Of a DNA stretch of 64,000 nucleotides, positions 9,732 to 24,346 are shown piece after piece. Each line of letters begins with the position of its first letter. Position 1 is the first letter of the stretch. Both the position numbers and the translations under genes were made by a program. The DNA comes from Thermodesulfobacteriota bacterium. Lineage in GTDB: Bacteria > Desulfobacterota > Desulfarculia > JACQYL01. The notes below the pieces were generated by a model. That model was given only the letters and a program-made list of their open reading frames with translations. It was not told the DNA's origin and searched no databases. The DNA is taken from NCBI GenBank assembly GCA_963675595.2, contig CAXXLZ010000002.1:3040001-3104000 (forward strand), read 5' to 3'.

Positions 9732-10613
9732 TTAGATATCCAGGTACGAGTCGGAGTACAAGGAATGCCCCATGATGACGCGAGCCGTCTTGTAGAATTC
9801 AAGCTGCTCTTTGTCCAACTTCGCGGGATCCATATCTTCCCCGTCCATGACCTTGTGGACGACTTCCACCAACTCCGGACGCTTACCCCAAGCGATCTGG
9901 TGCAGTCTTTCGTCGAAGGAATCCACGATGCAGGAGTACATGCCTTTTCTCTCCAGCATGATCATATAGGTCTGATTCAGGATCGGGCGAAGGTGTTCCG
10001 GAGGACCGTTGGACACATTGGAGAGTCCACAGGTCGACCTCGCACCGGGAGCGATGTCGTCCAGCATTTCCTGGAAGGCCAACAGGCTCATGCACTGCTG
10101 CTGCTGGATGTTGACGGGAGTGACGATTCCGTCCACGTAGATCTTCTCATTGGGGATGCCGGCCTCGTTCATGGCGTACACAAGCTCCACCACCAAAGCG
10201 GCCCGTTCGTTCTCGTCCCTCGGCAGGCCTTCGGGTCCCCACATGAGGGCGACCACGTCGGCGTTGTACTTGGCCGCTATGGGGATCATGGCTTCGTAGC
10301 GTTCCGGACGGCACATGATGGAATTCACCAGAGCCGTGCCTTTGTGAACTTGAAGACCCGCTTCCATGGCGGCGATGTTGGACGTGTCCAGTGCGAGAGG
10401 CACATCCGAGACCACTTCCTGGATCGTTTCCACCACCCAGGCCATCAGCTCATCGCCTTGTTTTCTGGCGGGGCCGAGGTTCACGTCGATCCAATCGTCC
10501 CCGGCCTTTTTCTGGGCCAGAGCCATCTCCTGGATCGGCTTCGGGTCGCGCTCTTTGAAGGCCTTCCCGATAACCTTGCTGATTACATTAAGGTTTTCGC
10601 CGATGAGTTTCAT
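9732..10613 (-). CDS. acsE: Methyltetrahydrofolate:corrinoid Fe-S protein methyltransferase
   Basis: Pterin-binding TIM barrel (IGENLN, IDVNLG, LALDT, CGLSNVS); last gene of the acs operon. Confidence 0.92.
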   Translation of the reverse strand: MKLIGENLNVISKVIGKAFKERDPKPIQEMALAQKKAGDDWIDVNLGPARKQGDELMAWVVETIQEVVSDVPLALDTSNIAAMEAGLQVHKGTALVNSIMCRPERYEAMIPIAAKYNADVVALMWGPEGLPRDENERAALVVELVYAMNEAGIPNEKIYVDGIVTPVNIQQQQCMSLLAFQEMLDDIAPGARSTCGLSNVSNGPPEHLRPILNQTYMIMLERKGMYSCIVDSFDERLHQIAWGKRPELVEVVHKVMDGEDMDPAKLDKEQLEFYKTARVIMGHSLYSDSYLDI

Positions 10614-10630
10614 TCTCCCCTCCTCTGTCT

Positions 10631-11980
10631 CTATTCAGGCTTCCATTCCTTGAGAAATTTGGGCAGGTGAGCTGCTTCCCTGGGTCCGATGAGCACCTTC
10701 CAATCGGGGAGCTCTTCTTCCATGTCGCCGCTGATGGCCGCGGCATACCCGGGAATAATGATGTTTCTGTGGGAAATCTTGTCGGTGATCCCGCACTTCT
10801 TGATATACGCCCCCACCATATCGCCCGAGAACTTGCCGGCGGCCCAGGCGGTCATGACGGAGAGACCTTCCGCATCCACGATGATTACCCAAGAGGGGAC
10901 GCGGCTGGCTTCGATTTCTCCGGTCACGATGAAGTACGTGAGTGAGAAGTTGGTGGTAACCATCACCGGCGAATTCTGATCCGGGTTGTTGATTTCGTAG
11001 ATTCCCGGTACCACGGTCATGGGCCGCTGCGGGTCGGTGTAAATGTTGAGCCGTTCCAGAAGCAGAGGGAATACGGTTTCGCCTTCGAAATCGGACATCA
11101 CGATGATGCCGCCGTATTTGGCCACCAACATGCCCGCAATGAGCGTTTCCATCTGAAGGTCCGCCGCCATTTCGCAGGGGAAGCAAATGGTTGGAAAACC
11201 CACTTCGCGATTCTGCTTCAACAGAGCGGCCCGACGGAGACCCATCTGATCTTCAAACAATTGCTTGACCGAACGGGCTCCCGAATCCATGACGATTTCC
11301 TTCAACCCCGCTTCGACGGCTTTGGCGGTCAGGGCTGTAAGGCCCTCGGCGGTATCGGCCTTGACGGCCAACGGAAATCCGCTTTCTTTCGCCAACGCTA
11401 CAACATCGTCCACGTTGTCTTTGGTCGCCGCATAGATCAGGGGATTCTTGCCTTCGGACACACCCACTCCGGCCTTCAGCACGTCTACGCTGTCACTCAT
11501 GAGCACGAGGCCGAAATCGGACACATCATAGATGCTCTTGGCCACTGCGGCAAAACGTTCCGCGTTTCCGTCCATGTCCTTCAAAGCGATCAGTTCGGGA
11601 CGGAGCATTACGCCCACGCGTTCATAATTGAAAGTATTCCATTTTCTCAACTTGGCGTCGATCACGTCGTCCGCCATATCCGTGGTGATCACTCCGGCGA
11701 ATCCGGGAGGTCCGTAAAAGGTCTTTTCATGCCTGAAAAGAACCGTTTCTCCGCCGATACTGACCTTTCTCGCCCCATATCCGATCTTCACCGGACGAAT
11801 GGGAGGGGCGGAGGCCTCGGCCAGCTTTTCTCTGGCCTCGTCGGACACGTAGGGACAAGCGTCCAAGTCGGCCTTTCCCGAGGCAAGATTCATTGCAAAA
11901 GCCAGGCAGGTGGGGACCCCGCACTCCTTGCAATTCGTCTTGGGAAGCAATTTAAAAATCTGAATTCCTGTCAATGCCAT
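10631..11980 (-). CDS. acsC: Corrinoid Fe-S protein large (gamma) subunit
   Basis: LPKTNCKECGVPTCLAFA...CPY cluster motif; IYTDPQRP, TTNFSLTY, SVMTAWAAGKF. Confidence 0.96.
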   Translation of the reverse strand: MALTGIQIFKLLPKTNCKECGVPTCLAFAMNLASGKADLDACPYVSDEAREKLAEASAPPIRPVKIGYGARKVSIGGETVLFRHEKTFYGPPGFAGVITTDMADDVIDAKLRKWNTFNYERVGVMLRPELIALKDMDGNAERFAAVAKSIYDVSDFGLVLMSDSVDVLKAGVGVSEGKNPLIYAATKDNVDDVVALAKESGFPLAVKADTAEGLTALTAKAVEAGLKEIVMDSGARSVKQLFEDQMGLRRAALLKQNREVGFPTICFPCEMAADLQMETLIAGMLVAKYGGIIVMSDFEGETVFPLLLERLNIYTDPQRPMTVVPGIYEINNPDQNSPVMVTTNFSLTYFIVTGEIEASRVPSWVIIVDAEGLSVMTAWAAGKFSGDMVGAYIKKCGITDKISHRNIIIPGYAAAISGDMEEELPDWKVLIGPREAAHLPKFLKEWKPE

Positions 11981-12058: not shown

Positions 12059-14272
12059 CTAGCCGACAATGGGGTCCATCTTCAGCGCGGGATGTCCCAC
12101 CTTCTCGAGCCACGGATAGATTTCTTCTTCCGTCACACCCACAGTCTCATCGGCGATCAAGTCGATGAGGTTGGGAACTCCGAGTTCTTCTCCACGCCTC
12201 AGGAGACGATCCCGAATCTCTTCCTTCAAAGACTTGGGCATCCAGACCATCCGTAGGAGTCCGCCGTCACCCGCGATGAATTTTCTCTGGGTGATGTTGA
12301 ACTTGCTGTGACCCACGAATCCGGGGCTGGAAGCGCCGCCGCCCATGACGCCGGCCAACGTGGTGAACTTCATTCCGCTGGGAGTCATGCCGGTGTAATC
12401 CCTGTGTACGGTCATAATGCCGTTGCACATGGGCAGAACGGCCGCGATGGCCTCGCAGCAGCCGCAGGTGGTCATGGGTTCGTATACCAGGCTGTAGAAG
12501 TTGTAGCTCTGCACGGCACCGCGGCTCGCCTTCTGCACGAACTCGTTGACGCCCTTCCACTGGCCCAGGACCGTATCCAAACATTCGCCCTTTTCGATGG
12601 GCTGGTTCGGACCGGTGGGATTGATTTCATAAGAAGCCTTGCAGTCCATCCAATTGTACGCTCCGCAAAGACCCGTTCGTTCCGGGCTCACGGTGCACAC
12701 ATGGTTGGGAGCAAATGACTGGCAAAGAGTGCAGGAGTAGAAGATTTCGACGCTCTCGTCGGTCATCTTCTCGACGCGTTCGTCGCGATGTTTGTATTCG
12801 CCCCTGGCCCTTACCGTCAGTTTATCCACGTCTTCCTTCTTGGTGTACAGGGTCACTTCCACCTTATCCAAAATGGAGCCGAAGTCCTGATGCAGTTTGG
12901 CATGCAGGATGATTCCCAAATGCTCCAGGGTAAAGCCCTTTTCTATGGCCCCTTCACCGACTCGAATCCATGCAATGTCGCGCTGTCCGATATGCATCAA
13001 GCCTTGCGCATAGTTGATCAGGTGGTGAATCTGACGTTCGAGAATCGGCTCGAAGTCTTCCTGCATTTCACGCCCGGCCACCTGCACATAAATGCCCAGG
13101 GGAAGCCTGTCGCCTTTCTTGATGTCCTTGACGTTGGGACCGACCACCGTGACTTTGCCGTCCTCGATTTGGCCCATGTCCGCCATTTTCACCAACTCGG
13201 TCGCCTGAGTCTTGCCGCCGCCCATTTCCATGTACAGGTCGTCCTTGCGAACGCGCTCACCTTCGAAGGCCGGACCGTAAGCCAACGGGATGTCCACTTT
13301 GGCCACGGTAACCTTCAGACCGCGAACCTCGATGGACCGCTGCGGCATATCCTTGTGATCCACATTGGCCACCACGTGTTCGTAAGTACAAACACCGGTG
13401 GGCAGAATTTCGGGAACGTCCGTGTCCGCCAGGGTCGGGAAACCCCAGTTGACACATCCGGCCGCGTTGGCGGCCCATTCGGCGTTCACCTCGCCCAGCG
13501 CGTTGACGAAAGCGAAGATGCGGTCTTTATTGTAATGCAACATGCGCTTATAATCGCCGGGTTTGATACCACCGAACGCCATGGCGGCGCGGTTGGCGAA
13601 TCCGAGAGCGAACACCGCCGCGGAGATGTCGGGCCCAAAAGGCACCAAACGAGTACCCCAGCCGATCTGAACTCCGGCCTCCATGAGCTGTTGCGCGAAC
13701 GTGGTTCCATTCTGGTTCGCGCACATGAACACGTACAACATCTTTTTCTGGTATTCTTCAGCGATCCACTTGGCCGTCTCCGCATCGGGAGCCGCGCCTA
13801 CGATGGCCGCAAAACCGGGCGCCGTGCCGTCCACGAACTCCACGCCGCGTTTGCGGAAGATGGTGTCTTCAGCCGCGCCCAGCCAGATCTTCCCGTTTTC
13901 TTCGTCAATATCCTCTCCCACCACGTAGAAATCGGGATCGTCCACGTAACGGATGGCTTCCACGATTTCTTCGGCGAACAGAGCGGCCATACCGGCATCC
14001 AGCAACGGCCCAAGGTAAGGCAGATGATTCACACCCTTCATGTGGGCAGGCAGAAGCTTCTTGGCCACTCCCAGGGGCTGAGCGGCTTCTCCCAGGGTTT
14101 TCACCGGGATGCCGAGCAGGGAATAGATGATGGGCAGATAGTAAGCGGTATTAGGGAATTCCAGTTTCTGATCCGGTCCGTACTGCTCAATGGCCCGCTT
14201 CAGCGTGCCTTCAGCCTTCGAGACGATATTGTAGGCCCCTTGAATCGCGGCAAACGCTACCAATCTGGACAT
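12059..14272 (-). CDS. acsB: Acetyl-CoA synthase (bacterial-type, with N-terminal domain)
   Basis: FPNTAYYLP; A-cluster ligands CTLCQSFAPNHVC...GLCG...CGCC. Confidence 0.97.
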   Translation of the reverse strand: MSRLVAFAAIQGAYNIVSKAEGTLKRAIEQYGPDQKLEFPNTAYYLPIIYSLLGIPVKTLGEAAQPLGVAKKLLPAHMKGVNHLPYLGPLLDAGMAALFAEEIVEAIRYVDDPDFYVVGEDIDEENGKIWLGAAEDTIFRKRGVEFVDGTAPGFAAIVGAAPDAETAKWIAEEYQKKMLYVFMCANQNGTTFAQQLMEAGVQIGWGTRLVPFGPDISAAVFALGFANRAAMAFGGIKPGDYKRMLHYNKDRIFAFVNALGEVNAEWAANAAGCVNWGFPTLADTDVPEILPTGVCTYEHVVANVDHKDMPQRSIEVRGLKVTVAKVDIPLAYGPAFEGERVRKDDLYMEMGGGKTQATELVKMADMGQIEDGKVTVVGPNVKDIKKGDRLPLGIYVQVAGREMQEDFEPILERQIHHLINYAQGLMHIGQRDIAWIRVGEGAIEKGFTLEHLGIILHAKLHQDFGSILDKVEVTLYTKKEDVDKLTVRARGEYKHRDERVEKMTDESVEIFYSCTLCQSFAPNHVCTVSPERTGLCGAYNWMDCKASYEINPTGPNQPIEKGECLDTVLGQWKGVNEFVQKASRGAVQSYNFYSLVYEPMTTCGCCEAIAAVLPMCNGIMTVHRDYTGMTPSGMKFTTLAGVMGGGASSPGFVGHSKFNITQRKFIAGDGGLLRMVWMPKSLKEEIRDRLLRRGEELGVPNLIDLIADETVGVTEEEIYPWLEKVGHPALKMDPIVG

Positions 14273-16490: not shown

Positions 16491-18050
16491 CTAATAGAGA
16501 CGTTTGTTAAACCGATCGACCTGTTTCATCAGTTTTTCGACAGGTCCTGTCTGCTCGGCCGCAGCGGTTTTCGGTATATCGACCGCGGCGCACACTTCAT
16601 GTTCATGGCCGGCCTTTTCAGCACGGCGAGCGTCGATTCTGGCCTGTTCCGCCGCTTTGGCTTTGGCTTTGGTTTCCGCTTTTTCTTTGGCTTCCGCCTC
16701 CGCTTTCGCCTTGGCTTCCGCTTCCGCCTTTACCTTTGCATCGGCTTCCGCCTTGGCTTTGGCTTCCGCTTCCGCCTTGGCTTTGATTTCGGCATCGGCT
16801 TTGGCCTTAGCTTCCGCCTCCGCCTTGGCTTTGGCTTCCGCTTCTTCCTTCGCCTTCACGTCCACTTGGGGCTCCGCAGCGGCGGGCTTGGCTTCCGGCG
16901 CGGGAGCGGCGGGCTTGGCCTCGGGTGCCGCAGCAGCGGGCTTGGGCGCGGGAGCGGCTTCTTTCTTAGCCTCTTCCTTCTTGGGCGGCGCCGCTTTCTT
17001 GGCTTCTTCTTCAAAGGCTTCCTTGACGATGGCCGGAAAGTCGCCTTCGGGTTTCTGCTTCATCTGCGCCAACTTGGCGGCGAGTTCATCGGGGCTGACG
17101 GCCAAGTCACCAGTGACCATCAATTCCAGGAACTTCTTCGCCAGCTTCACGGCTTCGGGATGACGCATGAAAAGAATGTCGGATCCTGCCAGAGCGTACG
17201 CCACGGCGGCCACGGATTCCATCATGACGCCTCTCTTCATGGGGTCGCCCAGGTCCGGAGCTTCTTCTTTGGTCAGTTTGGCTTCTTTGGATTTCCAGAT
17301 TTCATTGCCCAGGTTGTTCACCATGGGGAACTGGAGCTTCTCGTCTTCCTGCGCCAGCGCGGCCATTCTCAAGCGTTCCATAACGGAATAGCTGTATTCC
17401 ATGCCGTAGCCCAGGCCGCCTGTCGTGGGATCGATAAGAAGATCTTCCTTGACGCCCAGGTTTTCGAGAAGAATGTTCACCTGTTTGGCCAAGTTGACGT
17501 CGATGGGGCTGGAGGAAATGATGGTGTGTTTGTACCCAAGGGCCGCGGCGCCGATTGCCTTGTGATTCTTTTCTTCGACGGGACCAATGGCGAGATGTTT
17601 GCCTTCGAAGTCTTCGGCGATCTTCTTGAGAACTTCGGCGTCCTTCTCGGGATTGGCGCATCCCCAGATGATGATGGGAACGTCGACGGCGTCGACGACT
17701 TTCTTGACCTGGGCCGAGGCTTCTTCCGCGCCCGCGTTGCGACCGTTGGGATCGATGCTTTTCAATTGGACGACGATCATGTCGGCACCGTAGGTTTCGA
17801 CGCACTTCTTGGCCCACGCACCGGGATCTTTCACGACGTCTTTAAAGGGTTCCAAGGCGGCTTGCGGCCAGTCTTCAGGCTCCATGTCCCACACTTCCAT
17901 GGCAATACGAGTAGGATAGGGCATTTTACCTTCGAATAGATGGAAATTATATGCATTCTCTCCGCCCAGCTTGAGAGTGCTTCCAGGCCGACCGATCTCC
18001 ACTTCTCGAATGGCGCCGGCGTACTGAATTTTTGGAAGTTCGTAGGCCAA
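16491..18050 (-). CDS. acsD: Corrinoid Fe-S protein small (delta) subunit with about 190-aa Ala/Lys/Glu/Pro-rich C-terminal extension
   Basis: GGENAYNFHLFEG, SPIDVNLAKQ, DPTTGGLGYGMEYSYSVMERLR, MRHP. Probable TTG start 7 nt after GGAGG. Confidence 0.93.
   Translation of the reverse strand: MAYELPKIQYAGAIREVEIGRPGSTLKLGGENAYNFHLFEGKMPYPTRIAMEVWDMEPEDWPQAALEPFKDVVKDPGAWAKKCVETYGADMIVVQLKSIDPNGRNAGAEEASAQVKKVVDAVDVPIIIWGCANPEKDAEVLKKIAEDFEGKHLAIGPVEEKNHKAIGAAALGYKHTIISSSPIDVNLAKQVNILLENLGVKEDLLIDPTTGGLGYGMEYSYSVMERLRMAALAQEDEKLQFPMVNNLGNEIWKSKEAKLTKEEAPDLGDPMKRGVMMESVAAVAYALAGSDILFMRHPEAVKLAKKFLELMVTGDLAVSPDELAAKLAQMKQKPEGDFPAIVKEAFEEEAKKAAPPKKEEAKKEAAPAPKPAAAAPEAKPAAPAPEAKPAAAEPQVDVKAKEEAEAKAKAEAEAKAKADAEIKAKAEAEAKAKAEADAKVKAEAEAKAKAEAEAKEKAETKAKAKAAEQARIDARRAEKAGHEHEVCAAVDIPKTAAAEQTGPVEKLMKQVDRFNKRLY
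16641..16857 (-). repeat. About nine 24-bp repeats encoding KAKAEAEA-type octamers in the acsD tail
   Basis: KAKEEAEA KAKAEAEA KAKADAEI KAKAEAEA KAKAEADA KVKAEAEA KAKAEAEA KEKAETKA KAKAAEQA. Confidence 0.85.
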
Positions 18051-18223
18051 TTTCATACCTCCTTGGTGTATTTGTGAATTTTTTAACAAGGCACGGGTCA
18101 ACACATAACTTTAGTGAAATAATTCCCATGCTGTCAAGGAAAATTCCGCTCTCCCCGACGGCACGCCCATCGCTTCCCTTCTCGTTTTCCCTTGGCTCAA
18201 ACCTCTTTCGTTCGCCTCCCCCT

Positions 18224-18973
18224 TCAGTCCCCCAATATCTTCTCGAAAACCGAAAAGGAGGAAACTACCGAAACAGAATTGTCAGGCAGATTATAGGTTG
18301 GTTTTCCCTCTCCATCATAGTCGGATACCAGGGAATCCTCCGGAATCGTGCCCAAGAGGGGAAGATTCTCCTCATCCGCCAACTTCTCGACAATTTCCGG
18401 ATTGTCCGACTTCATCCGGTTGACGATCAAACCTCTTTTTCCAATCACCAACTTGAGGTCGTCCGCCAGTCGACTGATTCGCCCCGCCGCCTGAATTCCT
18501 CGACGGCTTGGGTCGGAAACCAACAAAAACACGTCGATGACTTTGGCGTTCATACGACTGATGTGTTCCATGCCGGCTTCATTGTCCAACACGATGTAAG
18601 GATAGTTTTCACTGAGACGGCTGATGTATTCGGCCAGCAGGGTGTTGGCGGCGCAGTAGCACCCCTCACCCTCCGGACGACCCATCACCAAAAGATCGAA
18701 ACCTTCCGCCTCCGCAAGGGCCTCCCCGATCTTCATTTCCATGAAGACATCTTTGGTCATGCCTTCCGGTACGCCTCGCTTCATTTCTTCCCGGGCGTTT
18801 CCCACCGTGTCGGGCACTTTCAGGCCCAGCACTTCGTTCAGATTTGAATTGGCATCCGCGTCAACGGCCAAGACCGGCTTCTTGTTCCGGCTCAACAGAT
18901 ATCGGACCAGCAGTGCGGCCAAGGTGGTCTTTCCAACCCCGCCTTTGCCGGCTAAGGCGATCGTCATTGCCAC
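18224..18973 (-). CDS. cooC: CODH/ACS nickel-insertion ATPase CooC/AcsF
   Basis: GKGGVGKT, DADAN, GCYC, DNEAGMEHISR. Confidence 0.93.
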   Translation of the reverse strand: MAMTIALAGKGGVGKTTLAALLVRYLLSRNKKPVLAVDADANSNLNEVLGLKVPDTVGNAREEMKRGVPEGMTKDVFMEMKIGEALAEAEGFDLLVMGRPEGEGCYCAANTLLAEYISRLSENYPYIVLDNEAGMEHISRMNAKVIDVFLLVSDPSRRGIQAAGRISRLADDLKLVIGKRGLIVNRMKSDNPEIVEKLADEENLPLLGTIPEDSLVSDYDGEGKPTYNLPDNSVSVVSSFSVFEKILGD

Positions 18974-19226
18974 GACTTACGTCTCCTTCCTTCAGGACCA
19001 AGAGATCGTTCTATTGAGAAACCGATCCCCTCCGTGGGGTCGGTTTGTTTCATTCCAACCCTTCTCTCTTATAACAAAACATTTTCGCGATCAACCTTCC
19101 TTGGATGTAGAGCCCCAACACCGCAAAAAGATTCAATTTCGATCTGAGGCTTGTCAACGGCCTTTCATTCCCGTATAAGGTAGGCTGGATTGGAGTATTT
19201 TAATCGTTTAATCAGGTTCTTATCTT

Positions 19227-20537
19227 ATGCTGGACTGGCAGACTCTCTGCACTGAAATCAGCCGAATCCTACCTGCGGAAGAATCTCCGGCGGCTCTTCA
19301 TTCTCTTACTCCCATCCGGATCGAGCACGATCTGATCCTGCTCGAGTCTCCCACCGATTCCCAAAAAACGATTTTTCTCGGCCGATACGGTCCCGCTTTG
19401 GAAAAAGCTCTCAAAAACCTGGGAATGGATCACATTCAAATTCGCTTCCAAGTCCGCTTTCCGGACAAGCCCGTCATTGATGACCGAACAGCTTCCATTC
19501 ATGCCCGGTCTTCCTCTTTTTCCGCTCCACTGAACCCGGCCTTCACGTTTTCTTCTTTCATCGAGGACTCATGCAACTCTCTCTGCCTGCAGGTTGGAAA
19601 ACAAACGGCCGCGTTCAAAGATACTCCGTATAATCCTTTTCTCGTCATCGGCGGCGGCGGTTGTGGAAAAACGCATCTCCTTCAGGCCATTGCGAACGAA
19701 GTCATGATCTCCTCTCCTCAACGTCGAGCCTGCTACCTTTCCGCATCCGAATTCTCGACTTCTTTGGAAATGTGCATTAAGTCCGGTATGCCTGAAAGCC
19801 TCAGATCGTCCATTCTTAAGAGCGACCTATTTCTTCTCGACGACATCGAGAAACTCGCCCATCATCGAAAGGCTCAAGACGAGTTTATTGTCATTTTCAA
19901 CGAGTTATATGATTATGGAAAACACATCGTGCTTTCCTCCGGCTCCTTGCCTAAAGAGATATCGGGATTGGACGAGCGCCTCAGGTCTCGACTCGGCTGG
20001 GGACTCGTAGCTGAAATTTGCACCCCGAGTTCCGCCCTGAAAAAACAAATTCTCCTCAACGCATGCGAAGCGGAGGGCATCCGGCTTTCCGAGGAGATCA
20101 TCTCATATTTGCTGGACCACCCCGATTCAAGCATCCTATTCCTGGAACGAATCGTGGTCCGCCTTGCCGCCCGCCTTTCTCTTTCTCAAGAAGCGCCGGA
20201 TCTGAATCTGGTGGTCAAATTGCTCAACGAGGAGGAGACGTCCGGAAGGAAGGATATCGGTGAAACCGTTCGGAGCGCGGTAATGAAATATTTCGGTGTC
20301 TCCGAGGAAGACCTCGATTCAAGCCGTAAGAACCGAGACGTCGTTTTCGCGCGCCAAACGGCCATGTATCTCATTAGGCGTCTGTCCGACGCCTCCTTTG
20401 CCGCCATTGCCCACCGTTTCGGGGGGAAAGATCATTCCACGGTTGTGAGGGCCTGCAAAAGGATCGCTGATCTCCAGGATCGAGATATTCAAGTTAAAGA
20501 AATTATTGATAAACTTATGAAGATGACTCAGATCTGA
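19227..20537 (+). CDS. dnaA: Chromosomal replication initiator DnaA (divergent)
   Basis: LNPAFTF, YNPF, Walker A GGGGCGKTHLL, Walker B LLDDI, RLRSRLGWG, domain IV ARQTAMYL...GGKDHSTV; directly upstream of dnaN. Confidence 0.88.
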   Translation: MLDWQTLCTEISRILPAEESPAALHSLTPIRIEHDLILLESPTDSQKTIFLGRYGPALEKALKNLGMDHIQIRFQVRFPDKPVIDDRTASIHARSSSFSAPLNPAFTFSSFIEDSCNSLCLQVGKQTAAFKDTPYNPFLVIGGGGCGKTHLLQAIANEVMISSPQRRACYLSASEFSTSLEMCIKSGMPESLRSSILKSDLFLLDDIEKLAHHRKAQDEFIVIFNELYDYGKHIVLSSGSLPKEISGLDERLRSRLGWGLVAEICTPSSALKKQILLNACEAEGIRLSEEIISYLLDHPDSSILFLERIVVRLAARLSLSQEAPDLNLVVKLLNEEETSGRKDIGETVRSAVMKYFGVSEEDLDSSRKNRDVVFARQTAMYLIRRLSDASFAAIAHRFGGKDHSTVVRACKRIADLQDRDIQVKEIIDKLMKMTQI

Positions 20538-20774
20538 CAGAGAGGTCGGTTTGATTTCCGCATGGATTCTCACTATTGTGGCTCACCTGTGATTTTCTTT
20601 TTCGGAAATGATTTTTCTGAGAATTCGGTGATCGAACGATAAGGAACCGATGAATTTCCAAGAACGTGAAGAGTTCATAACCGGCTTATAAAATTAGAGA
20701 AAATTAGTTACTGAATATCACACATCCCTTATATATATTATTAACTTCCTTACTTCTATTTTAGGAGAGCATAC
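20538..20774. other. Putative oriC (dnaA-dnaN intergenic region with AT-rich DUE and DnaA-trio-like tract)
   Basis: Position between dnaA and dnaN; TATCACACA-TCCC-TTATATATATTATTAACTTCCTTACTTCTATT resembles the box + GC + trio basal unwinding motif. Only degenerate DnaA boxes are present. Confidence 0.65.
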
Positions 20775-21896
20775 ATGGAGTTCCTGATCAATCGAAGTCG
20801 GTTCGTCAGAACATTGAGCATGGTTCAATCCATCGCAGAACGAAAATCCAGCATGCCCATCCTTTCCCATGTTTGCTTGTCTGCTCGAAATAATGAGGTA
20901 ATGGCGGAAGCCACGGATCTCGAAGTGGGATTTCAAGGGACTTGCGAAGCCGAAGTAAAGGCCGAAGGCACCCTGGCGGTGCCTGCGAGAAAGCTTTTTG
21001 AAATCGTTCGTGAAATCGCTTCGGAGACCATTCGCTTTGAAGGCGCGGAAAGCAAATGGGTGACTATTTCCGGGGCATCGGCTAGTTTCAAACTGTTCGG
21101 ACTTCCCGCCGAAGATTTTCCGGGGGTACCCAAGTTCGAACAACTCAATACCGTCGAGGTGGAAGCGGCTGAGCTGCATCGCATGATCGAGTTCACACTG
21201 TTCGCAGCCGCCGTGGATGATACTCCGCCTTATTACACTAGCGGAATCTATGCTGAGAAGATTCCGGAAGAGGAAGGTTCCGGGCTTCGGATGGTAGCCA
21301 CCGACGGCCATCGACTCAGTATGGTGGATCGATCCCTTTCGGGCGTGAACGATCTGGATTTCGATGCGGGAGTGGTGATATCAAGGAAGGGAATTACGGA
21401 GGTTCGGCATCTTCTGGAAGAGTCCGAGAAAGTCAAGCTCGGCCTCAGCAAGGAAGCGGGGGTTGTGATGTCGGATCATTCCATTGTGTCGCTCAGGCTC
21501 CTGGCCGGCAAATATCCCAATTATCGCGTTGCCGTACATTCGGATGAGCCTATCAAAGTGGAGGCCGAGCGACGACCTTTGCTGGAGATGCTTCGAAGAG
21601 TGCAGATCATGACCACCGAGAGGTATCGGGGGGTGCGCATGGAACTGCTTCCCGATAGTCTCGAACTCTTTCTGAACAATCCCGAAGTGGGAGACGCTCA
21701 TGAAGCGATGAAGATTACGTATCGCCATGAACCCATGAAGATAGGGTTTAATCCTAAATACTTCATCGATGTGCTGAGCATCATGGAGAGCGAGAAAGTC
21801 ACTCTGGGATTTCTCGATATGGAACACGGCTGTTCCATTCGAGGAGAAGCCGATGCCGGTTTTGTGGGGCTGGTCATGCCCATGCAACTCGCCTGA
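20775..21896 (+). CDS. dnaN: DNA polymerase III beta sliding clamp
   Basis: MPILS, ATDLE, ATDGHRL, GKYPNY, IGFNPKY, VMPMQL; 373 aa. Confidence 0.97.
   Translation: MEFLINRSRFVRTLSMVQSIAERKSSMPILSHVCLSARNNEVMAEATDLEVGFQGTCEAEVKAEGTLAVPARKLFEIVREIASETIRFEGAESKWVTISGASASFKLFGLPAEDFPGVPKFEQLNTVEVEAAELHRMIEFTLFAAAVDDTPPYYTSGIYAEKIPEEEGSGLRMVATDGHRLSMVDRSLSGVNDLDFDAGVVISRKGITEVRHLLEESEKVKLGLSKEAGVVMSDHSIVSLRLLAGKYPNYRVAVHSDEPIKVEAERRPLLEMLRRVQIMTTERYRGVRMELLPDSLELFLNNPEVGDAHEAMKITYRHEPMKIGFNPKYFIDVLSIMESEKVTLGFLDMEHGCSIRGEADAGFVGLVMPMQLA

Positions 21897-21940: not shown

Positions 21941-24345
<2,405 letters not shown>

Positions 24346-24346
<1 letters not shown>

Follow-up and report, generated by a model that had tools for sequence, protein, structure and literature searches.

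Replication in bacteria is held to be controlled almost universally by the ATP/ADP switch of DnaA, a protein in which the arginine of sensor 2 and the aspartate of sensor 1 hardly ever vary. A 64,000-nucleotide stretch of a Thermodesulfobacteriota genome (hereafter the window) carries, beside dnaN, a dnaA gene that encodes neither residue. Is its product still the initiator of this genome, a relic on its way to loss, or one of two DnaAs that act side by side?

Position and identity of the dnaN-linked dnaA

The window dnaA (19227..20537, plus strand) is an open reading frame of 436 aa, whose start is preceded by five in-frame codons and then a stop. Pfam searches matched Bac_DnaA (PF00308) to residues 102–262 (1.1e-41, 143.2 bits, profile positions 1–161 of 162) and Bac_DnaA_C (PF08299) to residues 347–413 (2.8e-24), where KDHSTV keeps the DHxT signature. 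In length and four-part layout the protein resembles canonical DnaA (E. coli K-12; 8btg, 2z4r, 1l8q/2hcb; TIGR00362), with which it also shares both Pfam domains, the GKT and DD motifs, R281 and R285, D433-H434-(S/T)435, synteny and tree group. Two other identities were rejected. Hda/HdaA proteins are ~230 aa with AAA+ only, whereas the window DnaA has 436 aa and a domain IV and, at 98.6 bits, stays below the 194.8-bit cutoff of the Hda profile TIGR03420. Nor is the protein of the T2 type, the second DnaA of this genome: GKT, DD and FGGKDH are present and it falls in the other clade of the tree.

Downstream on the plus strand lie dnaN, encoding the beta clamp (20775..21896; three Pfam DNA_pol3_beta domains), and gyrB (21947..24346; named by eye from its translation). 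Upstream, gene orientation switches in the intergenic region between a divergent CooC-like gene and dnaA (18974..19226). The dnaA–dnaN intergenic region (20538..20774) is AT-rich at ~20670–20770, making it a candidate unwinding region. Cumulative GC skew on contig C2 reaches its minimum at ~3.06 Mb, the position of the window dnaA, with a flat bottom over ~3.06–3.10 Mb; the skew maximum is on contig C1, giving roughly balanced replichores. All five genomes of the order have dnaN within the dnaA flank. In an IQ-TREE phylogeny of 82 rows, the dnaN-linked proteins of families f1 and f2 grouped together as a single clade within the canonical DnaAs (SH-aLRT 99). By tree grouping and by dnaA-dnaN-gyrB synteny at the skew minimum, the window dnaA is thus an orthologue of the dnaN-linked DnaAs (T1-derived), and the origin linkage claimed in the first-pass annotation holds.

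Searches for DnaA boxes gave little by which to judge binding specificity. Across the 64-kb window, 11 TTATCCACA sites with at most one mismatch were present against 7.8 expected, a count reached by 15 of 100 shuffles, and none of these lay in either intergenic region flanking the window dnaA. Allowing two mismatches, we found no site in 18974..19226 and a single one, TGAGCCACA at 20577, in 20538..20774. In the whole 6.79 Mb, no 400-bp stretch held four or more TTATCCACA sites with at most one mismatch, and a de novo search for 7-mer repeats in the two flanking intergenic regions returned nothing convincing. Relatives with canonical DnaA likewise have few boxes near dnaA, and box counts in the flanks did not cleanly separate genomes with canonical DnaA from those with derived DnaA.

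Residue losses and selection in the window DnaA

HMMER alignments to solved DnaA chains and a MAFFT alignment with E. coli K-12 DnaA ran through all motifs without gaps. They bear out the reported retention of Walker A (GGGGCGKT, 19650..19673, with K148 and T149), Walker B (LLDDI, 19833..19847, with D235 and D236) and the box VII arginines (RLRSR, 19977..19991, with R281 and the arginine finger R285), all on the plus strand, as are the positions that follow. At sensor 1, TSDRYPKE of E. coli reads SSGSLPKE, placing G239 (codon GGC, 19941..19943) at the position of D269; at sensor 2, NVRELEG reads SILFLER, placing L304 (20136..20138) at that of R334. A further change, absent from the first-pass annotation, puts S174 (19746..19748) at the E204 position, with a Glu next to it at 175.

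Both sensor losses, reported earlier from a by-eye alignment, are real and rare. Among the 119 other best homologues of the window DnaA, D269 and R334 are each present in all 119, as are R281 and R285. Of 66 near-invariant columns, each at least 97% conserved in those 119, the window DnaA keeps 43, against 63 for E. coli and 59–65 for the dnaN-linked DnaAs of families f4–f7. Its score on the TIGR00362 equivalog, 327.7 bits, is below the cutoff of 343.9. The protein departs from canonical DnaA in its sensor-1 Asp, sensor-2 Arg and E204, in 23 of the 66 columns, in its TIGR00362 score and in the lack of a DnaA_N signature. A passage of PMC4245941 ties E. coli D269 to stable nucleotide binding and R334 to ATP hydrolysis. 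The window DnaA is changed at the same positions as the E. coli laboratory mutants R334A and D269N/A; unlike those mutants, its changes are natural, its R334 loss is order-wide, and it has many more substitutions and no Hda in its genome.

An alignment artefact, with the sensor residues present but shifted, is highly improbable. Some clade members do have an Arg (G004, P0125) or Lys (P0126) one position past the sensor-2 column, and the window DnaA has an Arg (R308) four positions past it. However, other clade members do not share this +4 Arg and have K, S, Q and H there, and both alignments are gap-free across the segment that starts at Walker B and closes with the sensor-2 helix, with LPKE, RLRSR, L336 and R342 in register as anchors. 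No displaced Arg or Asp was found in the window DnaA, and a 95%-identical relative has Asp exactly at the sensor-1 column.

The sensor-2 loss is shared across the order. R334 is absent in all five species of the order and in all nine clade members found among 1.84 billion representatives, where the column holds L, L, V, H, E, N, N, H and D. By contrast, just three of the nine have lost the sensor-1 Asp, and the position varies within the family (G, D, Q, E). The 95%-identical relative (P0001, found in sequencing run X5) has an A at 19942, which encodes Asp; because it keeps this residue, the loss in the window DnaA is very recent. The X5 contig encoding the P0001 variant differs from the window at 122 of 2101 bases. 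No RNA run was among the listed sequencing runs that contain the locus.

These losses raise the possibility that the window dnaA is a functionless relic heading for loss. Family f3, in which the dnaN-linked copy is missing, may have gone that way. The disappearance of many conserved residues and of the DnaA_N signature would suit such decay, as would the freedom of the sensor-1 position to vary within the family. Comparison with P0001 over codons 1–262, drawing on 40 of 121 variant rows, nevertheless gave a pN/pS of 0.15 (23 synonymous and 11 non-synonymous changes), which indicates that the gene is under purifying selection and not decaying. In addition, all nine clade members have an intact frame of constant length (~427–436 aa), and although clade members share only 25–35% identity, none departs from GKT, DD, the box VII SR, H403 or T405. 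The AF2 model of the window DnaA, with a mean pLDDT of 90.5, also speaks against decay. We regard the relic as improbable, the selection signal having largely refuted it.

Evolution of this type of DnaA has nonetheless been fast. Terminal branches of the f1 and f2 dnaN-linked DnaAs measure 0.75–0.95, compared with 0.04–0.35 for canonical members of the class. Between the window genome and two members of its family (G001 and G002), identities are 61% and 53% for DnaN and 56% and 56% for T2, but 35% and 36% for the dnaN-linked DnaA (T1). Control pairs from other families had about equal values for DnaN, T2 and T1 (for example, 60%, 59% and 56%).

Divergence extends to the N terminus. The first 100 residues (19227..19526, plus strand), in the position of domain I, matched no Pfam family even at E ≤ 1, PF11638 (DnaA_N) included, whereas T1 of the four other members of the order (G001–G004) and T2 of the window genome matched PF11638 at 2e-10 to 3e-16. 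AF2 predicted an a-a-b-b-a-a-b fold for this region (pLDDT 84–91), a prediction driven by the alignment. In E. coli, domain I recruits the helicase.

Within the domain IV DNA-contact positions (20328..20453, plus strand), SLPEIG reads SFAAIA (P423 to A392, G426 to A395), DHTTVLHA reads DHSTVVRA (H439 to R408) and R399 is replaced by K368, while the core DNA-reading D433-H434-(S/T)435 is kept as D402-H403-S404. The first-pass annotation took the replacement of P423 and H439, which stands, as a sign of new DNA specificity; this second step is weak, given the retained core. Of the 119 other homologues, 99 have P at position 423 and 114 have G at 426. At 439, 88 carry H, 29 carry Y and 2 carry N; at 399, 72 carry R and 45 carry K, which makes K common there. 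Passages of PMC5043019 report P or L at 423 in Epsilonproteobacteria with similar specificity, and Lys at 439 in 54% of epsilon- and delta-proteobacterial DnaAs; canonical relatives within the class examined here have K at 439.

T2, a second DnaA in the same genome

A second full-length dnaA, T2, lies at ~1.988 Mb of contig C2 (positions 9809–11188 of locus L011), ~1.07 Mb from the window dnaA, mid-replichore and without dnaN linkage. The first-pass annotation had proposed looking for a second, canonical dnaA. The gene exists, but its product is not canonical: Walker A is GLGKS (Ser for T179), Walker B is LLEEV (EE for DD), D269 and R281 are missing, and one residue is deleted at G430. T2 is like the window DnaA in being full-length, in lacking the sensor-1 Asp and in residing in the same genome. 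It is unlike it in its Walker motifs, its lack of R281 and of a dnaN link, and its retention of E204, R334, R399 and domain I (DnaA_N, 1.3e-14); R285 is also kept. T2 passes TIGR00362 with 397.7 bits against the 343.9 cutoff and keeps 36–45 of the 66 near-invariant DnaA columns. Apart from the window DnaA and T2, the eight PF00308 matches in the window genome are of the IstB type, which leaves the genome without an identified Hda-like gene. RIDA as it operates in E. coli, invoked earlier for the nucleotide control of the window DnaA, is thus not the relevant frame.

T2 forms a clade apart from the dnaN-linked DnaAs, evolves more slowly than the window DnaA type and was found in 39 of the 41 class genomes. 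T2-type loci occur at no fewer than 547 places in GTDB species genomes, the best 80 of which are all titled Thermodesulfobacteriota or delta-proteobacterial. T2 is therefore an old paralogue across class and phylum, not a peculiarity of the window genome. The suggestion that the window DnaA is one half of a two-DnaA system remains a live reading, since a second full-length dnaA is present; its proposed partner, however, is old and phylum-wide. Most relatives have T2 beside a fully canonical dnaN-linked T1, so the presence of T2 alone does not cause T1 to degenerate.

In four genomes (G005, G015, G016 and G020), T2 is the only PF00308 match. One of these, G016, has no dnaA in the slot upstream of dnaN-gyrB, and family f3 has dnaN without a preceding dnaA. 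It is these T2-only MAGs (91–97% complete) that suggest T2 may be competent as an initiator. A further candidate, G025, was rejected as a T2-only complete genome: dnaN was also undetected there, probably reflecting an assembly gap, so it was not counted.

Among 26 flanking ORFs from 12 T2 loci, we found no replication genes. What recurs near T2 loci, and only patchily, is an FAD-linked oxidase, and an HD-domain gene together with ddl. A literature search for functional studies of paired DnaAs in Desulfobacterota or Desulfovibrio turned up one passing sentence, in bioRxiv 10.1101/2025.08.05.668638, which notes that Desulfovibrionia and Chlamydiales have two complete dnaA genes.

Possible roles of the two DnaAs

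On balance, and judging from sequence, we lean towards the window DnaA being a selected, hydrolysis-impaired vertical orthologue of the dnaN-linked initiator that works beside T2. Its history would have unfolded in one order of the Desulfarculus-related class, where this type of DnaA would have evolved at three to five times the usual rate. The sensor-2 arginine would have been lost first, throughout the order. Constraint on other residues for hydrolysis and tight nucleotide binding, namely E204 and the sensor-1 Asp, would then have relaxed in the family of the window DnaA, and the Asp change in the window genome would be the recent last step. The resulting protein probably still binds ATP, DNA and neighbouring protomers, without ATP hydrolysis as an off-switch. 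Such degeneration may have been tolerated because the second, old and slowly evolving DnaA is present. Since T2 has kept E204, R285, R334 and domain I, and some relatives have no other DnaA, it would supply the regulated initiator activity, leaving the window DnaA as a non-hydrolysing co-initiator or modulator at the origin. The two might form one mixed oligomer or act separately.

Several observations count against this co-initiator arrangement. T2 is itself non-canonical, and most relatives retain a fully canonical T1 next to it. It is the window dnaA that lies at the skew minimum with its classical neighbours dnaN and gyrB, which would fit a gene that is still the main initiator, while T2 sits in a non-replication neighbourhood. 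Possibly, though we think it doubtful, the window DnaA is the sole true initiator, its switch replaced by proteolysis, titration or transcriptional control, and T2 has another role, for example regulating initiation or controlling transcription by binding DnaA boxes. The synteny at the GC-skew minimum agrees with a sole initiator, as do the mid-replichore position of T2 among unrelated genes, the purifying selection on the window dnaA and its retained P-loop, Walker B, arginine finger and D433-H434-S435. In a summary table of PMC3905854, the row for the E. coli R334A mutant starts with '+', has one more '+' further on and ends with three columns of '-'; the first '+' could also favour a sole initiator, although the passage holding the table gives no column headings. 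Yet a sole initiator would have to manage without 23 of 66 near-invariant columns and without a domain I signature, while evolving far faster than DnaN and T2 of the same genomes. Moreover, it is T2 and not the window DnaA that passes the TIGR00362 cutoff, and several relatives have T2 alone.

A more specific division of labour, which we consider unlikely, would make the two proteins subunits of one machine. The window DnaA would be a hydrolysis-dead scaffold at the origin that donates an arginine finger, and T2 would contribute a functional ATP site together with the domain I that recruits the helicase. Eukaryotic ORC and the clamp loader are AAA+ assemblies with degenerate subunits, and the likeness, by analogy, would lie in a dead ATP site with an intact arginine finger serving beside an active paralogue. 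Were such a machine real, an ORC-like division of labour would have arisen inside Bacteria, and by extension Thermodesulfobacteriota at large would have in T2 a true alternative initiator.

A whole order thus has an origin-located, dnaN-linked DnaA that lacks the sensor-2 Arg and is still under selection, in a phylum-wide setting of a T2 paralogue that has seemingly had no functional study. The order offers a natural system for asking whether initiator ATP hydrolysis is dispensable when a paralogue is present and whether two DnaAs can share one origin. It also offers one for asking which gene encodes the real initiator where sulfate reducers and their relatives have two annotated dnaA genes, a question that bears on oriC prediction and on genome start-point conventions in the phylum.

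Position and motif residues of the dnaN-linked DnaA

The dnaA gene of the window (19227–20537, + strand) is a 436-codon open reading frame (ORF), with merely five in-frame codons preceding its ATG. It is followed by dnaN (20775–21896, +; three beta-clamp domains by Pfam) and gyrB (21947–24346, +; named by eye from the ORF translation), and the genes upstream lie in the opposite orientation. Beyond a CooC-like ATPase gene (18224–18973, −), an ORF at 16491–18104 (−) has a C-terminal tail, some 150 residues long, of Ala/Glu/Lys/Pro repeats (AEAKAKAEAEAKAKA...); on visual inspection the ORF resembles a CO dehydrogenase/acetyl-CoA synthase corrinoid subunit. The window spans 3040001–3104000 of contig C2, whose cumulative GC skew is lowest at about 3.06 Mb, coinciding with the dnaA gene, and stays flat as far as about 3.10 Mb before it rises. 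The skew maximum lies at 1.24 Mb on contig C1, and together the two contigs give one origin and one terminus, with replichores of about 3.2 and 3.6 Mb. The first-pass annotation's description of this DnaA as origin-linked therefore holds, with a precision of a few tens of kb.

Pfam matches cover the AAA+ domain (PF00308, 1.1e-41) and the C-terminal DNA-binding domain (PF08299, 2.8e-24) and do not include DnaA_N; against the NCBIfam equivalog TIGR00362, the protein scores 327.7 bits, below the cutoff of 343.9. HMMER alignments to solved DnaA chains (best 8btg_A, 8.9e-58) were gap-free across all motifs, as was a MAFFT alignment with E. coli K-12 DnaA in which residue numbers were verified. In E. 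coli numbering, the sensor-1 Asp D269 is replaced by Gly239 and the sensor-2 Arg R334 by Leu304, as had been read from the sequence by eye, and the replacements at the DNA contacts P423 (Ala392) and H439 (Arg408) hold as well. So does the retention of Walker A (GGGGCGKT), Walker B (LLDDI) and the box VII arginines (RLRSR; R281 and R285). Three further changes are G426 in domain IV to Ala395, the DNA contact R399 to Lys368 and E204 to Ser174, the last absent from the earlier annotation and with a Glu at the next position. Neither alignment placed a shifted Arg or Asp at the sensor positions; the Arg found four positions beyond the sensor-2 column varies among relatives. An alignment artefact as the source of the missing sensor residues is extremely improbable.

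As a baseline we used the 119 other best homologues from 120 listed of 860 proteins at E ≤ 0.001 (7999 candidates scored). D269, R334, R281 and R285 are each present in 119 of 119. Position 423 is Pro in 99, position 426 Gly in 114, position 439 His in 88, Tyr in 29 and Asn in 2, and position 399 Arg in 72 and Lys in 45. According to PMC4245941, D269 contributes to stable nucleotide binding and R334 to ATP hydrolysis; a summary table in PMC3905854 gives R334A a '+' in its first column and '−' in the last three, the column headings lying outside the retrieved passage.

Divergence extends beyond these motifs. Of 66 columns with a conservation of 97% or more in the baseline, the window protein matches 43, whereas E. 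coli DnaA keeps 63 and dnaN-linked DnaAs of other families in the class keep 59–65; a third of the family's invariant residues has been lost. The domain I signature is also gone: the first 100 residues matched no Pfam family, even at E ≤ 1, and DnaA_N was found at 2e-10 to 3e-16 in the equivalent region of the order's four other species and of T2, a second DnaA of the same genome. An AlphaFold2 model from a 67-row alignment (mean pLDDT 90.5) predicts an alpha-alpha-beta-beta-alpha-alpha-beta N-terminal domain at pLDDT 84–91, a prediction that leans on the homologues in the alignment. Among the matches listed from 5.8 billion clustered proteins, the only close relative is P0001 (95% identity), the rest being at most 40% identical.

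DNA recognition and DnaA boxes

The base-contacting set of DnaA comprises R399, P423, D433, H434, T435 and H439, according to PMC7561715. The window protein retains D433, H434 and S435. PMC5043019 reports Pro or Leu at position 423 in Epsilonproteobacteria of similar specificity and Lys at position 439 in 54% of epsilon/delta-proteobacterial DnaAs; the canonical DnaAs of the window's class also have Lys at 439. The recognition helix, which the first-pass annotation had called altered, is therefore within known variation save for Ala423 and Arg439, each found in 0 of the 119 baseline homologues.

Canonical boxes with up to two mismatches number 0 and 1 in the two intergenic regions flanking dnaA, 22 exact boxes occur in 6.79 Mb, and no 400-bp stretch anywhere in the genome holds four or more one-mismatch boxes. 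Relatives with canonical DnaA show no clear excess of boxes near dnaA, so box scarcity here says little about specificity. The densest box-like spot near dnaA, three one-mismatch sites in 540 bp (12822–12872 and 13356), lies about 6 kb upstream inside long overlapping ORFs and is within chance expectation for the window.

Loss across the order and constraint on the gene

The dnaN-linked DnaA is fully canonical in families f4–f7 of the class, but not in the window's order (five species). The five proteins of the order and P0001 form one clade within the canonical group (SH-aLRT 99, IQ-TREE), with terminal branches of 0.75–0.95 versus 0.04–0.35 for the canonical members of the class. Searching 1.84 billion representatives with a profile of this clade yielded 66,983 matches at E ≤ 0.001; the best 150 contained seven clade members (P0001 and P0121–P0126), three of them new. 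Across the nine clade members now available, position 334 is L, L, V, H, E, N, N, H and D, never Arg, and the following position is Arg in two and Lys in one. The sensor-1 Asp is gone in three of the nine (Gly in the window, Gln in G001 and Glu in G002, two relatives' genomes) and present in P0001 and all five f2-type members, while position 204 is Glu in one, Asp in three and another residue in five. Among the other 135 representatives of at most 620 aa in the best 150 (8 longer ones excluded), 128 have R at position 334, with K in 6 and G in 1; at position 269 there are 128 with D, 4 with K and 3 with N. Such losses are thus uncommon without being confined to this clade. The loss of sensor-2 came earliest and dates to the base of the order; the remaining residues serving hydrolysis and affinity, including E204 and recently the sensor-1 Asp in the window protein, drifted afterwards.

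Identity between the window's genome and G001 is 61% for DnaN, 56% for T2 and 35% for the dnaN-linked DnaA; with G002 the values are 53, 56 and 36%. In control pairs from other families, DnaN, dnaN-linked DnaA and T2 change at about equal pace (60/59/56, 44/47/41 and 48/41/41%, respectively).

A contig from sequencing run X5 spans 18900–21000 with 122 differences and no gaps, and encodes the P0001 variant. All 34 changed codons yield the P0001 residue, and 11 alter the amino acid. Codons 1–262 carry 23 synonymous and 11 non-synonymous changes, giving a pN/pS of 0.15 (40 of 121 variants, the gene's 3′ third lying outside). One of the eleven is the sensor-1 codon, where the window has G at position 19942 (Gly) and the relative has A (Asp). 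The window gene is under constraint, a real, selected, origin-located DnaA orthologue. That it is instead a decaying relic is very improbable, being opposed by this pN/pS and by intact frames in nine lineages.

A second DnaA and its possible role

Whole-genome searches with PF00308 and PF08299 found exactly two full-length DnaA homologues and did not find Hda. The remaining eight PF00308 matches are of the IstB type from IS21 elements (four representatives tested, the others with identical scores). These helper ATPase genes, on C1 and C2 (loci L003–L008 and two more places), comprise at least three sequence types with several identical copies, which points to active or recent elements.

The second homologue, T2 (459 aa; C2 about 1988075–1989106, +; 9809–11188 of fetched locus L011), lies at about 1.988 Mb, mid-replichore and with no skew turn, flanked by an unknown protein and large sensor kinases. 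It has Walker A GLGKS and Walker B LLEEV, retains E204, R285, R334 and R399, matches DnaA_N at 1.3e-14 and passes TIGR00362 with 397.7 bits. A second dnaA, which the first-pass annotation had suggested looking for in canonical form, is present as a full-length gene but is not canonical, given GLGKS, LLEEV, a Ser at the sensor-1 Asp position and the absence of R281.

DnaA matches occur in all 41 genomes (40 relatives and the window's), two in most. We aligned 71 ORFs from all full-length matches with E. coli DnaA and 10 of the 120 listed homologues, leaving out fragmentary or weak matches (G019:C124 and C97, G037:C219 and C110, G039:C89, G022:C93 and three of G038). The 82-row IQ-TREE (quick search, SH-aLRT support only) splits into a canonical group, holding the outgroup proteins and dnaN-linked DnaAs, and a T2 clade of 44 rows. 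T2 is an older, slower-evolving paralogue coexisting with the window gene; it is present in 39 of 41 genomes and was not found in G004 (71% complete), while G038 was left unclassified. A query built from 17 of the 44 T2 proteins placed T2-type loci at no fewer than 547 places in GTDB species genomes. The titles of the top 80 all belong to Thermodesulfobacteriota or to delta-proteobacterial lineages (Desulfobacterales, Desulfatiglandales, Desulfobaccales, Syntrophobacterales, Desulfarculus, Desulfatibacillum alkenivorans), some of them in the vague form "Pseudomonadota/Proteobacteria bacterium". The class is Desulfarculus-related, since Desulfarculus supplies the closest titled relatives of family f4.

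Beside the T2 gene of G031, four TTATCCAC(C/T) sites fall in about 320 bp (L056, G031:C13, 4126–4442), and box-like sites, one or two per gene, lie 100–250 bp upstream of several other T2 genes; these could reflect autoregulation or a binding cluster. Family f3 holds a third DnaA type, extremely divergent and carrying Walker A "GPWGKT" (L078, L080, L081 and L082, from G008, G011, G024 and G032), which keeps 27–34 of the 66 conserved columns, has a tree stem of 2.33 and lacks dnaN in its flanks.

T2 is the sole PF00308 match in G005, G015, G016 and G020 (91–97% complete). In G016 (f3; L168, G016:C75 995–4136), dnaN-gyrB is preceded by a gap of 535 bp followed by an ABC-F ATPase, with no dnaA; in G020 (f3; L167, G020:C34 996–3529), the 1.4 kb upstream of dnaN, up to the contig end, has no ORF of 120 aa or more. 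G025 was discounted as a T2-only genome because dnaN was likewise not found there.

One sentence in bioRxiv 10.1101/2025.08.05.668638 notes the occurrence of two complete dnaA genes in Desulfovibrionia and Chlamydiales; our literature search found no functional work on these pairs and no published dnaN-linked DnaA without the sensor-2 arginine. A two-subunit, ORC-like DnaA initiator, conceivable by analogy, seems unlikely. A rival reading, also rather unlikely, is that the window protein is still the sole initiator, under another control, with T2 in a different role. On balance we lean towards a reading in which the window protein would still bind ATP, DNA and its neighbours but would no longer hydrolyse ATP, the presence of T2 having probably made this loss tolerable and T2 supplying, we suggest, the regulated activity.
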